A stretch of DNA of 13,551 bases from a virus: the IMG/VR virus record IMGVR_UViG_3300012949_000081; one strand, 5' to 3'. The notes beneath the pieces were generated by a model. The model was not told the DNA's origin and did no database searches. It saw only the letters and a list, made by a program, of their open reading frames with translations. This document shows, in pieces, positions 189 through 13,551 of this stretch. The stretch's first letter is position 1; each line of letters opens with the position of its first letter. The position numbers and the translations under genes are program-made.

Positions 189-512
189 TTAATATCCTCT
201 TTTTAGCCGCCGCATTATAACGCTTGGCGCGTCCAGCTGCGTTTTATAAGTTATCATGCGTACGTCTGTATTGTAGTCTTTAGCAAGGCCTATTTTCTTA
301 AATTCTTCAAGGACTGTCATAATACCGGCCGCCGCTTCTGTTATGTCTGTGGCTTCTGGATATACAAAGTATTTGCCTTCCGCATATACCACAACGGCAT
401 ATGTAGAAAATGGGTTATCCGGCTCTATCGGAAAGGCAAATATAGTACCGCCCAACTGTTCCCTTATGGCTTTGGCTGTTTCAATGGCTTGTTGCTTTGT
501 CTGTTTCTTCAT
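189..512 (-). CDS. Hypothetical protein (107 aa from the ATG at 512; the track ORF extends to 533)
   Basis: Long ORF on the coding strand. RBS GGGGGA lies 9 nt upstream of the ATG at 512 (MKKQTKQQ...). No motif I recognise. Overlaps the upstream gene by 32 nt. Confidence 0.6.
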   Translation of the reverse strand: MKKQTKQQAIETAKAIREQLGGTIFAFPIEPDNPFSTYAVVVYAEGKYFVYPEATDITEAAAGIMTVLEEFKKIGLAKDYNTDVRMITYKTQLDAPSVIMRRLKRGY

Positions 513-927
513 TTCTCTTTTCCCCCGTTTCAATAGCCCTTTTTAATATTTCTTGGGTTGCAATGATATAATCAAAGGCCATATCTACAAAGTTAAATAT
601 CAAGTCATACTCCAAAAACCATTTATAAGACTGTTTCCCATGCTCTTTTTCTTTTTCGTCGTCCTGGTTCTGGCTCGGTACCTGGCTGCCCCATCTTATA
701 GCTGCTCTCGGGTCTGGCTTATCTGCAAAGCCATACTCTTGTGTCCAATAGCTTAACAAGGTATCAGCCTTTTCTAACTTAATAAGAGCGTCCTCAATGG
801 CTGTACGCGTTTCAAACAATTCATGTTTTAAGGCTTTTTCCGTAACGTTTGCTGCCGTTACTTCGTTTACCCCGTTTATACCGCTTACAACGTTTATCAT
901 GCTTACTGCGTTTACCATTTTGTTCAT
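481..927 (-). CDS. Hypothetical 148-aa protein with an N-terminal x-[V/I]-[N/S] tripeptide repeat
   Basis: ORF on the coding strand with a weak RBS (GTGGGG, 7 nt before the ATG). The first ~27 codons are encoded by the 9-bp phased array at 847-918. No recognisable domain. Confidence 0.55.
   Translation of the reverse strand: MNKMVNAVSMINVVSGINGVNEVTAANVTEKALKHELFETRTAIEDALIKLEKADTLLSYWTQEYGFADKPDPRAAIRWGSQVPSQNQDDEKEKEHGKQSYKWFLEYDLIFNFVDMAFDYIIATQEILKRAIETGEKRNEETDKATSH
847..918. repeat. Eight tandem 9-bp units with G[C/T]TTA[C/T] core (plus-strand orientation)
   Basis: Units: gtttgctgc, cgttacttc, gtttacccc, gtttatacc, gcttacaac, gtttatcat, gcttactgc, gtttaccat, starting at 847, 856, 865, 874, 883, 892, 901 and 910. 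The last six are strong and the first two degenerate. Confidence 0.8.
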
Positions 928-963
928 GTAAATACCCCACTTTCTAAAATGTTTTTTGGTGAT

Positions 964-978
964 ACTTTAATGTTTACT
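964..978 (-). promoter_or_regulatory. Conserved box ACTTTAATGTTTACT (copy 2)
   Basis: Identical 15-mer to 87-101. Lies 37 nt upstream of the ATG at 927 and downstream of the predicted -10. Flanked by GGTGA/TCACC inverted repeats. Confidence 0.6.
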
Positions 979-991
979 CACCGTTTAATGA

Positions 992-1022
992 TATATTACA
1001 CCATGATTATTATATTTGTCAA
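992..1022 (-). promoter_or_regulatory. Sigma-70-like promoter of the 148-aa/107-aa cassette
   Basis: Minus strand reads TTGACA (1022-1017), an 18-nt spacer, then TAATAT (998-993), with TG immediately upstream of the -10. Confidence 0.45.
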
Positions 1023-1032
1023 GTAGTTTTTT

Positions 1033-1059
1033 GTAAATAAAATAAACATAGTAAACATA
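1033..1059. repeat. Three tandem 9-bp units gtaaataaa / ataaacata / gtaaacata
   Basis: Same [G/A]TAAA[C/T] core and 9-bp phase as the large arrays. Sits between terminator 1068-1095 and promoter 992-1022. Confidence 0.5.
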
Positions 1060-1067
1060 AAAAGTCG

Positions 1068-1095
1068 AAAAAAGAAAAACGGCCAATATGGCCGC
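1068..1095 (-). terminator. Rho-independent terminator after the head-closure gene
   Basis: Minus-strand hairpin CGGCCA-TAT-TGGCCG (1094-1080), followed by TTTTTCTTTTTT (1079-1068). Confidence 0.6.
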
Positions 1096-1121
1096 TCTTG
1101 TATTATAACTGTGGGCTTATA

Positions 1122-3486: not shown

Positions 3487-3516
3487 CTATTTCACCGCCT
3501 TATTACTTGCTGTTTA

Positions 3517-3528
3517 TTTAATGTTTAC
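3517..3528 (-). promoter_or_regulatory. Conserved box TTTAATGTTTAC (copy 3, 12-nt core only)
   Basis: Core identical to the other three boxes. Lies 31 nt upstream of the terS ATG. No convincing -35/-10 seen upstream. Confidence 0.45.
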
Positions 3529-7548: not shown

Positions 7549-7577
7549 ATTATAGCATACTTTAATGTTTACGTCAA
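7549..7577 (-). promoter_or_regulatory. Near-consensus promoter of the head operon with the conserved box (7559-7573) in its spacer
   Basis: Minus strand reads TTGACG (7577-7572), exactly 17 nt, then TATAAT (7554-7549). The spacer contains GTAAACATTAAAGT. A second TATAAT at 7587-7582 lies 9 nt upstream of the box, the same spacing as at 110-115 versus 87-101. Confidence 0.6.
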
Positions 7578-7624
7578 GTTTATTATATGATTATCAGAAT
7601 TACTTTGTTTATTGTTTTTACTTG

Positions 7625-7651
7625 GTAAACATAGTAATAAAAATAAACGCA
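7625..7651. repeat. Three tandem 9-bp units gtaaacata / gtaataaaa / ataaacgca
   Basis: Same core and phase as 1033-1059 (shared AAACATAGTAA). Partly overlaps the terminator U-tract. Confidence 0.4.
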
Positions 7652-10246: not shown

Positions 10247-10312
10247 TTTCTCATCTCCCTTTTTGTATCCACATGGGGTATATTTCTTTATTCTTTAAGC
10301 CCATAATATTAA

Positions 10313-10349
10313 GGCGGCGCGGCGGCGTCAAACAAGCCGCTGCCGCCGC
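10313..10349. other. GC-only imperfect hairpin in the origin region
   Basis: GGCGGCGCGGCGGC, loop gtcaaacaa, GCCGCTGCCGCCGC: about 8 bp of G/C pairing with one wobble. No adjacent U-tract on either strand, so it is not a typical terminator. Confidence 0.4.
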
Positions 10350-10380
10350 TATAAAGCTTATATAGCTTATAAAGCTTATA
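10350..10380. repeat. AT-rich segment with three 9-bp phased GCTTAT units
   Basis: GCTTAT at 10356, 10365 and 10374 (ataaagctta tatagcttat aaagcttata). The core fits the G[C/T]TTA[C/T] consensus of the 847-918 array. Possible DNA-unwinding element. Confidence 0.5.
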
Positions 10381-10447
10381 CAATTTTACGGCAAACTCTG
10401 GAAGGCTTGTCTTTACTGGGTTTAATGGCATTTTTTACTCTTTTTAT

Positions 10448-10535
10448 CGTTACCACTTTCTGCCCCATGCGTTACCACTTTCTGCCCCATGCGTTACCAC
10501 TTTCTGCCCCATGCGTTACCACTTTCTGCCCCATG
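10448..10535. repeat. Four perfect tandem 22-bp iterons (cgttaccactttctgccccatg): candidate replication origin
   Basis: Identical units at 10448, 10470, 10492 and 10514. They abut the stop codon (10537-10539) of the 459-aa gene and lie upstream of the primase-helicase gene. Confidence 0.8.
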
Positions 10536-10536
10536 C

Positions 10537-11931: not shown

Positions 11932-12003
11932 GTAAACACAATAAGCAATGTAAACAAGGTAACCACAGTAAACATTGTAAACTGTGTAAACATGGTAAAC
12001 ATT
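11932..12003. repeat. Eight tandem 9-bp units with [G/A]TAA[A/G/C]C core: candidate centromere/operator array
   Basis: Units: gtaaacaca, ataagcaat, gtaaacaag, gtaaccaca, gtaaacatt, gtaaactgt, gtaaacatg, gtaaacatt, starting at 11932, 11941, 11950, 11959, 11968, 11977, 11986 and 11995. Orientation is opposite to the 847-918 array. Confidence 0.85.
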
Positions 12004-12203
12004 TATTTATCCTTACCCTTGTCATTGTCAATGCCTAAAAGGTACTCTCTCATAGCTTCCTCTGTAACATACCAGCGCGTACCAAACTTACGGGCTTTTA
12101 TGCGGCCTTCTTTGAAAAACTTTCTTATGCTCTGCGGCGTCATATCAAAGATTTTGGCTATTTCCTGCACATCGTAAAATTTGATGTCGCCTATCTGCTT
12201 CAT
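12003..12203 (-). CDS. Excisionase/AlpA-type (MerR-like) helix-turn-helix DNA-binding protein
   Basis: 66 aa. YDVQEIAKIFDMTPQSIRKFFKEGRIKARKFGTRWYV matches the excisionase-family HTH pattern. The start overlaps the RHH gene stop (TAATG). Confidence 0.75.
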   Translation of the reverse strand: MKQIGDIKFYDVQEIAKIFDMTPQSIRKFFKEGRIKARKFGTRWYVTEEAMREYLLGIDNDKGKDK

Positions 12204-12535
12204 TACTTATCCTTCCTTTCTATAATCTCTTTACCGTCCAAAAACTCGGCAATCATTTTGTTTACAACGTCCTTCAAGGTTTCTCTTTCGGTGTATGCGT
12301 AATCTTTGAGTTTTTCTAATAAATCTTCTCTTACAATGAAGGTTGCGCGCGTGTAGCCTTCCCTTAAACCTTCCTGGCTTGTCTTTTCATATTCCCGGTA
12401 TATAGTGCGCGGCCTTCCCATGTTACTTCTGGGTACCTGTGGTAACCCTTGTTCCTCTTGTTGTTCCGGCTCCGGTTGTTCAAAAAACTTGCTTACCGCT
12501 TGGTCGCCTAAACCTTCAATTTTCTTCTTACTCAT
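12203..12535 (-). CDS. Ribbon-helix-helix protein, probable ParA partner (ParG/omega-like centromere binder)
   Basis: 110 aa. Disordered acidic/basic N-terminus, then a strand-helix-helix pattern RATFIVREDLLEKLKDYAYTERETLKDVVNKMIAEFL. Immediately downstream of parA. Confidence 0.65.
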   Translation of the reverse strand: MSKKKIEGLGDQAVSKFFEQPEPEQQEEQGLPQVPRSNMGRPRTIYREYEKTSQEGLREGYTRATFIVREDLLEKLKDYAYTERETLKDVVNKMIAEFLDGKEIIERKDK

Positions 12536-12540
12536 GTTTT

Positions 12541-13293
12541 TTACTTACCTCCCTTAATAATTTCAGCTGTCAAAGCATTATAGCCCGCGGCCGTCGGTGA
12601 TACTGGCGCATAGGTTAAAATATCCGTCTGATTTGCCTGGGCTTCTCTTGTCGCCACACTTGCCCTTATAAAGGTTTGAAATACTTTTGTATTCATTCGC
12701 TTTGCTGCGGCCTTTGCCGCTTTTTCAAACTCTCTGCTTAAAAGGGTTCTGTTGTTATGCTGCGTAAACAATAAGCCTTCAATTTTTAGGCCTGGGTTAC
12801 TATGACGCCTTACGGCTTCTATGGTAGAATATAATTGGCTTAACCCTTGCAGGCTTAATACGTCTGCTGATAATGGAATAATAACGCTGTCGGCAGCTGT
12901 TAAGGCGTTTATGGTTAATATCCCTAATGACGGCGGGGTATCAATCAAAACATAATCATAGCCGTTCTTAACGGCTTCTACTTTGTTCCTTAATAGCTCC
13001 GGCCGCTTAATTTCCATATCGGCACCGCTCAAAAGAATGTTGGCCGGTATAATATGGCCGCTCTTGGTTTGCTGCAAAGCGTTTTTAATGCTTACCTTGT
13101 CGTTCAATACTTCATATACTGTGGGCTTATTTACGCTATCTGCGCCGGCAATAAAAGATAAATTGCCTTGCGGATCCAGGTCAATCATTAAAACCCTATA
13201 TTCCTTATAGGTCAATGACGCGGCCACATTATGGGCTGTTGTCGTCTTGCCTACGCCGCCCTTTTGGTTGGCTATTGCTATAACCCTGGGCAT
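12541..13293 (-). CDS. parA: ParA/Soj-family partition ATPase
   Basis: Deviant Walker A IANQKGGVGKTTT at the N-terminus, then LMIDLDPQGN, then Walker B VLIDTPPSLG. 250 aa. Confidence 0.95.
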   Translation of the reverse strand: MPRVIAIANQKGGVGKTTTAHNVAASLTYKEYRVLMIDLDPQGNLSFIAGADSVNKPTVYEVLNDKVSIKNALQQTKSGHIIPANILLSGADMEIKRPELLRNKVEAVKNGYDYVLIDTPPSLGILTINALTAADSVIIPLSADVLSLQGLSQLYSTIEAVRRHSNPGLKIEGLLFTQHNNRTLLSREFEKAAKAAAKRMNTKVFQTFIRASVATREAQANQTDILTYAPVSPTAAGYNALTAEIIKGGK

Positions 13294-13334: not shown

Positions 13335-13499
13335 TTAATAAAAGCTGTTATATGCTTCTTCCGCTTCTTCCTCGGTTCTCATGTCCATAAAATACTTCAT
13401 GTTGCTTTCCAGCTGCTTTATGGTTTCCTTGTCCAGCTTTAAGGCTTTTGCTGCTAAAATCATGTATCCAATAGCCGCCGCGTTTGTCATACCGTCCAT
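13335..13499 (-). CDS. Hypothetical 54-aa protein, first gene of the par operon (not in the ORF track)
   Basis: My translation: MDGMTNAAAIGYMILAAKALKLDKETIKQLESNMKYFMDMRTEEEAEEAYNSFY. Strong RBS (AAAGGAGTGAAAAC-ATG). Stop TAA at 13335-13337, 41 nt upstream of the parA start. Below the track length cutoff. Confidence 0.45.
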   Translation of the reverse strand: MDGMTNAAAIGYMILAAKALKLDKETIKQLESNMKYFMDMRTEEEAEEAYNSFY

Positions 13500-13551
13500 G
13501 TTTTCACTCCTTTTTTACTTTAATGTTTACTTGCATTTTATTATAATATTA
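13431..13551. repeat. Terminal direct repeat copy B (circularisation overlap)
   Basis: Identical to 1-121. The repeat boundary at 13431 falls inside the ORF 13335-13499, so it is not a natural element end. Confidence 0.95.

Follow-up and report, generated by a model that had tools for sequence, protein, structure and literature searches.

A 9-bp repeat array at the probably translated start of a gene in a capsid-forming plasmid: candidate docking sites for a small partition protein

The window analysed here, a stretch of 13,551 nt of viral DNA, carries on its minus strand eight 9-bp units of the form NNN-[G/A]TAA[A/G]C in strict 9-bp phase (array 1, 847-918), which coincide with codons 4-27 of a gene for a 148-amino acid protein (481-927, minus strand). 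Judged from sequence, these units most likely serve as binding sites of the small partition/repressor protein that the element encodes, and the array is probably also translated. The reading that we favour, with fair though not strong confidence, draws on sequence comparison and structure prediction. It holds that array 1 would be occupied by dimers of a ribbon-helix-helix (RHH) ParB-like protein, acting as a centromere, as would a second array (array 2), and as operator of promoter P1, and that it would have expanded in frame into the translated 5' end of the gene. It is the placement of the array in a gene that is unusual; the plasmid-segregation signal itself is familiar.

The ends of the window form an exact 121-bp terminal direct repeat (1-121 = 13431-13551), so that the element is a circle of 13,430 bp, and its junction is spanned by an independent contig (L006). 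It is a capsid-forming satellite-plasmid with a ParA / candidate RHH ParB / HTH_17 module. Megablast of the whole window against phage and plasmid collections gave no match, an Rfam search of the window returned no family, and no match for the 148-, 114-, 54- and 459-amino acid proteins was found in Pfam, PHROG or NCBIfam.

From its ATG at 927 the gene runs, on the minus strand, ATGAACAAA ATGGTAAAC GCAGTAAGC ATGATAAAC GTTGTAAGC GGTATAAAC GGGGTAAAC GAAGTAACG GCAGCAAAC, with the translation MNK MVN AVS MIN VVS GIN GVN EVT AAN. This is exactly the tripeptide reading given in a first-pass annotation of the DNA, which also placed the in-frame ATGs correctly (927, 918 and 900). The start codon group (ATG AAC AAA, MNK; 919-927, minus strand) can be taken as a degenerate, weak ninth unit (AACAAA), and its start is kept in relatives. 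The hexamer cores of the eight units lie at 910-915, 901-906, 892-897, 883-888, 874-879, 865-870, 856-861 and 847-852; six of the eight are exact matches to [GA]TAA[AG]C, and GTAACG and GCAAAC are each one base off. A four-unit comb (RTAARC-N3 ×4, at most one mismatch) matched the window eight times, always in array 1 or array 2, and found nothing in any of 200 dinucleotide shuffles, which confirms the earlier claim of phased units at 847-918 that are the reverse complement of those at 11932-12003. TRF reported a period of 9 at both arrays, and exact GTAAAC was observed 29 times in the window versus 7.4 expected; a PWM scan of the window at low threshold gave too many background clusters for use. 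Given the peptide, codon choice in array 1 is biased to the motif (P ~0.002 to 5e-6, a statistic inflated, as are those on spacers below, by the common ancestry of the compared arrays), and synonymous resampling of the array 1 peptide produced at least seven motif units in 0.18% of trials.

Array 2 (11932-12003, plus strand) consists of eight GTAAAC-NNN units, GTAAACACA ATAAGCAAT GTAAACAAG GTAACCACA GTAAACATT GTAAACTGT GTAAACATG GTAAACATT, located between the HTH_17 stop and the start of the gene for the 459-amino acid putative Rep, antisense to the genes. The two arrays are the only runs of at least four contiguous units on the circle. They are inverted relative to each other, and the distance of about 2.3 kb proposed for them agrees with the ~2.27 kb measured across the junction defined by the terminal repeat. 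The idea that they bracket the par operon holds as geometry; the count of two further genes does not, since three small genes (148, 114 and 54 amino acids) lie between array 1 and parA. Bracketing by two arrays is also an incomplete description, because the GTAAAC site set, which is found family-wide, comprises the two long arrays, a 3-unit mini-array and a 15-mer, GTAAACATTAAAGTA, at three promoters. The mini-array (GTAAATAAA ATAAACATA GTAAACATA; 1033-1056, plus strand) is inverted with respect to array 1 and directly upstream of the -35 element of P1, and it occupies the same place in the window and in L003, L004, L005, L009, L010 and L021. P1 itself (993-1022, minus strand; TTGACA, 18-nt spacer, TAATAT) is a consensus match only. 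Directly downstream of its -10 element lies a 15-mer copy (963-977, minus strand), a candidate operator in the P1 leader that is kept in relatives. Around this copy a hairpin can be drawn (GGTGA / TCACC; 958-982, minus strand) whose stem covaries among relatives, with compensatory double changes in 4 of its 5 pairs across 4 sequences. An intrinsic terminator (1075-1099, minus strand), which ends the upstream packaging operon, marks the upstream edge of this control region.

The 15-mer is present in three exact, distinct copies, and at up to 3 mismatches 8 matches were found versus 1.06 expected. The second exact copy (100-86) follows promoter P2 (86-139 including the 15-mer, minus strand; a perfect TTGACA-18-TATAAT at 139-110), upstream of the 54-amino acid gene and parA. 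The third (7558-7572, minus strand) sits between the -35 (TTGACG) and -10 (TATAAT) of P3, the promoter of the portal/capsid operon, and has an orthologous site in L003 and L010. A degenerate 9-bp phased run (7580-7625) was observed upstream of the P3 15-mer, and a near-copy of the 15-mer is found upstream of terS (3514-3528).

The par module starts with a small deviant Walker A ATPase, ParA (12541-13293, minus strand; Pfam AAA_31 2e-56, CbiA, ParA; NCBIfam ParA_partition 6e-33, below the curated cut-off). Its N-terminus is MPRVIAIANQKGGVGKTT, and its 250 amino acids agree with the type Ib size of ~200-250 without an N-terminal HTH domain. Five nucleotides after parA begins the gene for a 110-amino acid candidate centromere-binding protein (12203-12535, minus strand), whose disordered N-terminal tail contains an invariant GRPRT motif and whose C-terminal part is predicted to adopt an RHH fold (strand TRATFIV, helices 70-83 and 87-99). 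In the AF2 model residues 1-60 are disordered and are followed by the strand region and two helices (pLDDT ~88-91). The top Foldseek matches are all RHH proteins (CopG, ORF56, Arc, AmrZ), with a TM-score normalised to target length of up to 0.84 and an E of ~1, which is not significant; Arc-like PHROG matches are weak (E 5e-4 to 1e-3), and Pfam and NCBIfam gave no match. In the strand, T62, R63, T65 and I67 are invariant across the family, A64 and F66 are kept in at least 90% of sequences and V68 is variable. Between distant relatives both the repeat motif and the strand are invariant, so that covariation is uninformative apart from the case of standalone RHH homologues described below. The third gene encodes a 66-amino acid excisionase-type HTH_17 protein (12003-12203, minus strand). 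Its start overlaps the RHH stop (TAATG), which suggests translational coupling to the RHH gene; it co-occurs with ParA-RHH in every ParA-containing relative locus, and an RHH-HTH_17 fusion is annotated in one relative (P0117). A short-repeat centromere beside the par operon, as a rule overlapping the promoter of that operon, is typical of type Ib and has its counterpart in the two 8-unit arrays that flank the operon, in the mini-array and 15-mer at P1 and in the 15-mer at P2, a layout common to relatives.

Among relatives the number of array 1 units varies: it is 8 in the window, L001, L002, L006, L007 and L021, 7 in L004 and 3 in L003, the array is degenerate in L005, L009 and L010, and there are no units in L020, L019, L011 and the chromosomal L012, where the core protein exists without the array. 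Homologues without 9-bp periodicity, which had been expected to speak against the first-pass interpretation, thus do occur (L019, L020, L011, L012); they weaken the case that the protein needs the repeat, and leave a function of the DNA itself unaffected. Non-coding arrays of 9-bp GTAAAC units are present in most of the 40-odd related loci. Most loci also have an array at the array 2 position, and its orientation flips between clades, so that inversion of the arrays as such is unlikely to be essential; a functional requirement for inverted orientation was therefore rejected as unsupported. Long arrays are not obligatory for the family either, since L019, a complete relative, has a par module and no array of at least 4 units. 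Inside arrays some units are flipped in register (GTTTAC, GTATAC), as expected of a two-fold symmetric dimer on each unit. Standalone 65-amino acid RHH homologues, with parA absent within the 4-7 kb examined per locus, have GTTTACcctGTAAAC immediately before the ribosome-binding site of their own gene.

In one clade (L014, L015, L035, L022 and L023) a 9-bp array of 6-9 in-frame [G/A]TAAT units fills the first codons of the HTH_17 gene (10 units in comb counts, which begin just upstream of the ATG). The frame, N|GT AAT NNN, yields S/G/D-N-x and differs from that used in the 148-amino acid gene. HTH_17 proteins are 61-80 amino acids long, and many of the lengths (66, 69, 72, 75, 78) differ by multiples of 3 amino acids. 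Relatives that lack the array have their HTH_17 ATG in the same TAATG overlap with the RHH stop as this clade does. The cores of these embedded arrays are GTAAT, not GTAAAC, which we count against the favoured reading.

Is array 1 really translated? The first-pass annotation had offered two options, an array overprinted on a real coding 5' end or an artefactual N-terminus. The latter, in which translation would start downstream of the array and leave it in a long leader, as a regulatory or centromere element that codes for nothing, we consider improbable. In its favour, the Shine-Dalgarno (SD)-like sequence of the window, GTGGGG (935-940, minus strand; 7 nt upstream of ATG 927), is weak, and array-free homologues indicate that the core protein does not need the array. 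The open frame itself is weak coding evidence, because in NNNGTAAAC two of the three frames are open of necessity, and indels of 9 bp are frame-neutral. However, all array-bearing relatives have an SD and ATG (MNK/MNM) directly upstream of the array, with a strong AAAGGAG 5-9 nt before the same ATG, whereas none of the candidate starts downstream is preceded by a ribosome-binding site. The sole downstream start candidate, the TTG of codon 36, is replaced by TTA in L009 and by CTA in L021, and the stretch that links the array to the conserved core, including the codons before this TTG, displays synonymous changes among relatives. Spacer triplets are codon-like in coding arrays only: those starting with G make up 13/23 in coding versus 3/100 in non-coding arrays, and those starting with T 0/23 versus 28/100 (Fisher p = 4e-9, inflated by common ancestry as noted); in-frame stop triplets occur in the non-coding arrays. 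The unchanged position of the HTH_17 TAATG overlap points in the same direction. An artefactual N-terminus is thus disfavoured, and overprinting is supported, as far as sequence can tell, by the kept SD and ATG, downstream synonymous changes and codon-like spacers on the side of translation, and by the codon bias and the motif copies in non-coding arrays on the side of a second function. A converse explanation, in which the repeat is a functional x-V-N tail of the protein or a neutral, slippage-prone low-complexity region with only an incidental likeness to the other array, seems to us very improbable. Slippage commonly yields tripeptide repeats with copy-number variation, and the peptide repeat is visible in several homologues; yet the same hexamer in the same 9-bp phase recurs in the family's non-coding arrays and promoter sites, the variable amino acid is encoded by the spacer while the conserved part corresponds to the DNA core, and the same kind of array is found in a different gene, in a different frame and with a different peptide. 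The tail is moreover of low model confidence (residues 1-25, array-encoded, pLDDT <50; mean 64 for the whole protein, which is low, the remainder being a simple, long helical hairpin) and absent from many homologues.

As to which protein occupies the units, the 66-amino acid HTH_17 protein might bind the arrays, alone or together with the RHH protein, as a lambda Xis-like head-to-tail filament, leaving only the 15-mers to the RHH protein, or the reverse. Xis-type proteins do bind tandem direct repeats, the HTH_17 gene adjoins array 2 here, as it does in most related loci of ParA-RHH-HTH type, one clade has its array inside the HTH_17 gene itself, and the two domains are annotated as fused in P0117. 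We nevertheless regard this alternative as unlikely, since the flipped in-register units and the pseudo-palindromic core are easier to reconcile with a symmetric dimer than with a winged helix bound as a monomer. Where standalone RHH homologues have no HTH_17 gene next to them, their own leader carries the pair GTTTAC-N3-GTAAAC, although two such contigs encode HTH_17 ~0.7 kb away. In two documented type Ib systems, pCXC100 and pSM19035, the centromere binders are RHH proteins (PMC3074162, PMC9499535). A role of the arrays as iterons for replication, or as recognition sites (cos/pac) for packaging, appears hardly credible. Array 2 is directly upstream of the putative rep gene, the 15-mer near-copy precedes terS, and HTH_17 is weakly similar to small-terminase N-terminal domains (phrog_57). 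Against this, four perfect 22-bp iterons are found directly after rep (10448-10536), separate from the 9-bp units, and relatives have such a set too; Rep-binding iterons are direct repeats of ~17-22 bp at the origin by rep, whereas the 9-bp units are unlike them in sequence and spread over promoters. GTAAAC sites track promoters and the par module, and a 9.7-kb relative (L016/L017) has them in the absence of packaging genes. Rep iterons and packaging sites were rejected on these grounds.

Under the favoured reading, each 9-bp unit would be bound by one dimer of the 110-amino acid RHH protein, recognising the pseudo-palindromic core GTWWAC, and adjacent dimers would bind cooperatively. Arrays 1 and 2 would both be centromeres (parS-like sites) of a type Ib-style ParA/RHH partition system. 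Array 1 would in addition form one side of a ~200-bp control region around P1, the other parts of which would be the mini-array and the 15-mer after the -10 element; because these sites surround P1, the bound protein would be expected also to repress or roadblock this promoter. With a unit of 9 bp, i.e. three codons, the array could have expanded in frame into the gene start, and its translation product may be an x-[V/I]-[N/S] tail that is disordered, varies in length and can be dispensed with. A bolder, adaptive version, which we think rather unlikely, is that arrays are positioned in the first codons of the 148-amino acid gene and of HTH_17 so that initiation of transcription and translation and occupancy by ParB control each other. 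Segregation, copy number and the capsid switch would then be coupled via one RHH protein; array length, evolving fast, would serve as a tuning knob and reset incompatibility as well, and the peptide tails may modulate the proteins. This version draws on the position of array 2 just before rep and on the 15-mer at packaging promoters.

Among known systems, the type Ib plasmid pCXC100 of Leifsonia xyli has a centromere of about nine unspaced, non-palindromic 9-bp direct repeats, bound cooperatively by one dimer per repeat (PMC3074162). Both arrays of the present element likewise consist of eight unspaced, non-palindromic direct repeats with a period of exactly 9, and the proteins are alike in kind: a small Walker ParA and a small ParB with a C-terminal RHH (predicted here) and a flexible N-terminus. 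Homology to the pCXC100 ParB was not detected: a phmmer search of all PDB chains with the 110-amino acid protein found nothing at E up to 10, although the C-terminal domain of that ParB (PMC3074162) should be among them. The motifs differ, and pCXC100 has a single non-coding centromere upstream of par, whereas the present element has two long arrays, one of them inside a coding region, plus short sites and a third par gene, HTH_17. In pSM19035 (inc18; omega as ParB, delta as ParA, parS), the RHH protein omega is both centromere-binding protein and global repressor; the arrays it binds consist of 7-10 contiguous repeats of 7 bp, which may have either orientation. They overlap three promoters and serve as parS, and at least 4 contiguous repeats are needed for ParA activation (PMC9499535). 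The likeness, several contiguous short-repeat arrays, direct or inverted, that overlap promoters, is architectural only. The units here are of 9 bp with a GTAAAC core rather than WATCACW heptads, no sequence match to omega was found among PDB chains, omega/parS arrays are upstream of genes and untranslated, and a single-site operator like the 15-mer is not described there.

ParR of the type II systems of R1 and pB171 is an RHH protein that binds two tandem iteron blocks flanking the par core promoter, so that centromere and operator are one region. These systems differ from the present element in their actin-like motor, ParM instead of ParA, and in their iterons, which are of 11 bp in R1; neither iteron block is coding, and the two share one orientation. 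MetJ met-boxes and CopG/Arc operators are tandem short boxes with pseudo-palindromic cores, each bound by a symmetric RHH dimer with cooperative contacts; these sites number 2-5 boxes and are purely transcriptional, without a partition role. A centromere site within a translated gene is known from Bacillus subtilis, where a parS lies inside the spo0J/parB coding sequence. That site, a single 16-bp palindrome for an HTH/CTPase ParB, is unlike array 1 in that it is not tandem and has neither a peptide repeat nor copy-number variation. A literature search for translated RHH centromere arrays found no precedent among the papers covered, which does not prove that none exists.

If confirmed, array 1 would be a clear natural case of a bacterial centromere/operator array and a coding sequence on the same bases; within one family of elements it would have originated at least twice, using two genes and as many frames, with unit-number polymorphism. 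The 9-bp, three-codon period would allow an array bound by protein to extend into a gene and leave that gene intact. This would account simply for some of the tripeptide repeats at the N-termini of small proteins from mobile elements and call for caution in annotation. The system is compact and testable, comprising three proteins, a single hexamer and arrays of 0-10 units, and it could address the question, already posed for omega/parS, of how many contiguous RHH sites separate a centromere from an operator.

As regards the host element rather than the array, the closest match is the satellite-plasmids of Vibrio. These too are small circular elements (~13-16 kb) with capsid, portal, protease, head-tail adaptor, HNH and terminase genes, parA and rep, and no tail genes. 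They have been reported in Vibrio only, unlike the present family, whose replication and par modules differ from theirs; the family points to satellite-plasmids outside Vibrio, in which one candidate operator would be common to all promoters. Its members come from bioreactor and fermentation metagenomes, and distant homologues are found in Desulfitobacteriia MAGs.

Starting at its ATG (927), the 5' end of the 148-aa gene (481-927, minus strand) runs ATGAACAAA ATGGTAAAC GCAGTAAGC ATGATAAAC GTTGTAAGC GGTATAAAC GGGGTAAAC GAAGTAACG GCAGCAAAC. After one degenerate unit come eight NNN-[G/A]TAA[A/G]C units with a period of exactly 9 bp and cores at 847-915 (array 1), and the translation is MNK MVN AVS MIN VVS GIN GVN EVT AAN. 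Re-reading of the sequence confirmed the first-pass observation of this array, its coordinates, peptide and in-frame ATGs all being correct. Array 2, at 11932-12003 on the plus strand, consists of eight GTAAAC-NNN units. TRF called a period of 9 at both arrays, and a four-unit comb allowing at most one mismatch matched only these two places in the window (0 of 200 dinucleotide shuffles). Positions 1-121 recur exactly at 13431-13551, a terminal direct repeat of 121 bp, which makes the molecule a circle of 13,430 bp with the arrays ~2.27 kb apart across the junction; contig L006 spans that junction.

Two alternatives had been proposed for array 1: that a DNA array is overprinted on a translated 5' end, or that the annotated N-terminus is an artefact and the array regulatory. 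For the 148-aa protein there are 21 homologues from metagenomes, with N-termini of unequal length. Counted at the DNA level, eight units are present in the window, L001, L002, L006, L007 and L021, seven in L004/L032 and three in L003; units are degenerate in L005, L009 and L010 and absent from L020, L019, L011 and the chromosomal locus L012. An artefactual N-terminus is unlikely: in all array-bearing relatives an ATG (MNK/MNM) with a Shine-Dalgarno sequence, in most cases AAAGGAG, stands directly 5' of the array, differences in the codons from the array to the conserved core (VTE.ALKHE) are synonymous, and the TTG at codon 36, the sole other candidate start nearby, is not kept in relatives. 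In the protein model, residues 1-25 have pLDDT <50 and the remainder is a helical hairpin. When codons were resampled synonymously with the peptide fixed and the codon usage of the element, at least seven motif-like units arose in 0.18% of cases, and the probability of the exact codon set of array 1 given its peptide is ~5e-6; the 3-nt spacers of coding arrays begin with G in 13/23 and with T in 0/23 cases (GC 0.51), as against 3/100 and 28/100 in non-coding arrays (GC 0.19, stop triplets present; Fisher p = 4e-9), and both kinds of statistic are inflated by shared ancestry although their direction agrees. They point the same way, towards an array core kept by DNA function and spacers kept by coding. 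Dual use, as a DNA array and as a translated 5' end, is on these comparisons the best-supported reading and a reasonably probable one.

A comparable arrangement recurs in another clade, in the first codons of the gene for HTH_17, an excisionase-type protein (L014 10040-10099, L015 10289-10348, L035 4220-4279, L022 5395-5472 and L023 2246-2323). These 9-bp arrays contain 6-9 in-frame [G/A]TAAT units (comb counts reach 10 since counting begins just 5' of the ATG), with GTAAT rather than GTAAAC cores, and begin right behind the ATG, which overlaps the stop codon of the gene for the predicted ribbon-helix-helix (RHH) protein. Their frame, N|GT AAT NNN, differs from that of array 1, and the encoded repeats are S/G/D-N-x. 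The lengths of HTH_17 homologues span 61-80 aa, and for many (66, 69, 72, 75 and 78 aa) the differences are multiples of three residues. That similar arrays occupy a second gene in a second frame, and encode a different peptide, argues strongly that selection on the array acts at the DNA level.

Further GTAAAC sites form a set with array 1. One is a mini-array of three units, GTAAATAAA ATAAACATA GTAAACATA (1033-1056), inverted relative to array 1, which lies directly upstream of the -35 of P1, the consensus-matched promoter of the 148-aa gene, and holds the same position in all close relatives examined. Three distinct minus-strand sites in the window match the 15-mer GTAAACATTAAAGTA exactly. 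Two directly follow a -10, that of P1 (963-977) and that of P2, the perfect-consensus promoter of the 54-aa gene and parA (86-100 = 13516-13530); the third (7558-7572) falls between the -35 and -10 of P3, the promoter of the portal operon. Ahead of terS there is a near-copy (3514-3528, minus strand). Orthologous sites are kept in L003, L004, L010 and L020, and in L019 as GTAAACATTAATTA. The 15-mer looks like a single operator governing the whole element. In the P1 leader (958-982, minus strand) it sits inside an inverted repeat of 5-7 bp, which varies in sequence among relatives while complementarity is kept (GGTGA/TCACC, GATAGG/CCTATC, GGCAAGT/ACTTGTC, CGGTAA/TTACCG), with compensatory changes in 4/5 pairs across 4 sequences. 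The enclosing repeat is absent from the 15-mers at P2 and P3. It may form an RNA or DNA hairpin with the operator shown in the loop.

Near-identical relatives carry a ~520-bp deletion (L001 about 2887-2925 and L002/L008 about 2304-2340, against window 189-675), by which the 148-aa gene loses its 3' part and the 114-aa gene most of its length. They retain P1 with the array, and the par module, which suggests that these two genes are dispensable, unlike the control region.

The candidate binder is the 110-aa ParB-like protein, the putative RHH protein encoded 5 nt after ParA. It has weak Arc-like PHROG matches; in its AF2 model the first 60 residues are disordered and are followed by one strand and two helices, and the best Foldseek matches of the model are CopG, ORF56, Arc, AmrZ and MatP (E about 1). 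Among 36 family members the strand TRATFIV hardly varies, a parallel to the invariance of GTAAAC. The GRPRT motif is also largely invariant in these members (G40, R41 and P42 invariant, T44 in ≥90%). Located in the disordered N-terminal tail (residues 40-44; window 12386-12400, minus strand), it resembles the AT-hook core (GRP) and could be a minor-groove contact or a ParA-activating arginine. Standalone 65-aa RHH homologues (L038-L042), whose protein has this TRATFIV strand too, have GTTTACcctGTAAAC directly 5' of their own ribosome-binding site (e.g. L042 3946-3960), with no parA within the 4-7 kb of DNA covered per locus. Further down, 170-450 bp past the RHH gene, these loci carry a GC-rich repeat of 28-31 nt, GGCAAACCCCACGCGCGCGAGCTGCA, in 3-4 copies at a spacing of 59-73 bp (e.g. 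L042 4365-4527), and the spacers contain small hairpins. The region may be an origin, or the repeats a different repeat system.

Some units are flipped yet in register within arrays (GTTTAC, GTATAC), so that the core is a pseudo-palindrome, GTWWAC, as would be expected if each unit were bound by a single symmetric dimer. HTH_17 remains a rival or partner candidate for binding the arrays: it always accompanies ParA-RHH, and one relative encodes a 150-aa protein (P0117) annotated as an RHH + HTH_17 fusion. The trio, with a 3-unit GTAAAC array, is also found on L016/L017, a 9.7-kb tyrosine-recombinase plasmid-like element without capsid genes. The trio is thus a portable module.

Omega of pSM19035 binds arrays, each of 7-10 contiguous heptads in either orientation, which overlap three promoters and constitute parS; ParA activation needs at least four contiguous repeats, three being bound without activation (PMC9499535). 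By analogy, both eight-unit arrays would be centromeres, and the mini-array and 15-mers operators. No sequence homology was found to omega or to ParB of pCXC100 (type Ib, 9-bp repeats), and the likeness is therefore one of design, not of family membership. The first-pass annotation had noted that two inverted arrays bracket the par operon. The geometry holds, but has no special status: the downstream array is oriented differently in different clades, and the complete relative L019 (14.1 kb) lacks a long array. L019 has the ParA-RHH-HTH_17 module and its 15-mer-like site at three promoters, and no 9-bp array of at least four units was found across the whole locus; either short sites would be enough for partition, or its centromere would be of an unrecognised kind. 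No description of a translated RHH centromere array was found in the literature searched. The present elements offer a clean, recurrent case of a proposed centromere array and coding DNA sharing sequence, in a little-known satellite-plasmid family.

Every gene of the window is on the minus strand. In order, these are the primase-helicase, 179-aa and 83-aa genes without assigned function, portal, prohead protease, major capsid protein, a 90-aa protein, HNH, small and large terminase and head-completion protein, followed by a terminator (1099-1075, minus strand); then P1 with the array-bearing 148-aa gene and the 114-aa gene; P2 with the 54-aa gene, ParA (250 aa), the 110-aa protein and HTH_17 (66 aa); and finally array 2, a 459-aa putative Rep and four perfect 22-bp iterons. 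Neither tail genes nor an integrase were found among them. This gene content (capsid, portal, protease, HNH, TerS, TerL, head completion, primase-helicase, Rep/iterons, ParA) resembles that of the recently described capsid-forming satellite-plasmids (cf-PISP), so far reported in Vibrio only (PMC13230959), whereas the present element comes from bioreactor and fermentation metagenomes; dozens of relatives of 12-14.6 kb occur in bioreactor, fermentation and other metagenomes. The putative origin (10310-10536, minus strand) lies directly 3' of the rep stop: the iterons (10448-10536) are followed by three 9-bp phased TATAAGCTT units (10350-10380), whose core ATAAGC resembles the array motif, and a GC-rich hairpin at about 10310-10345 ends the region. 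L014 and L015 share this layout, with 22-bp iterons (four and two, respectively) followed by three copies of CTATAAGTA.
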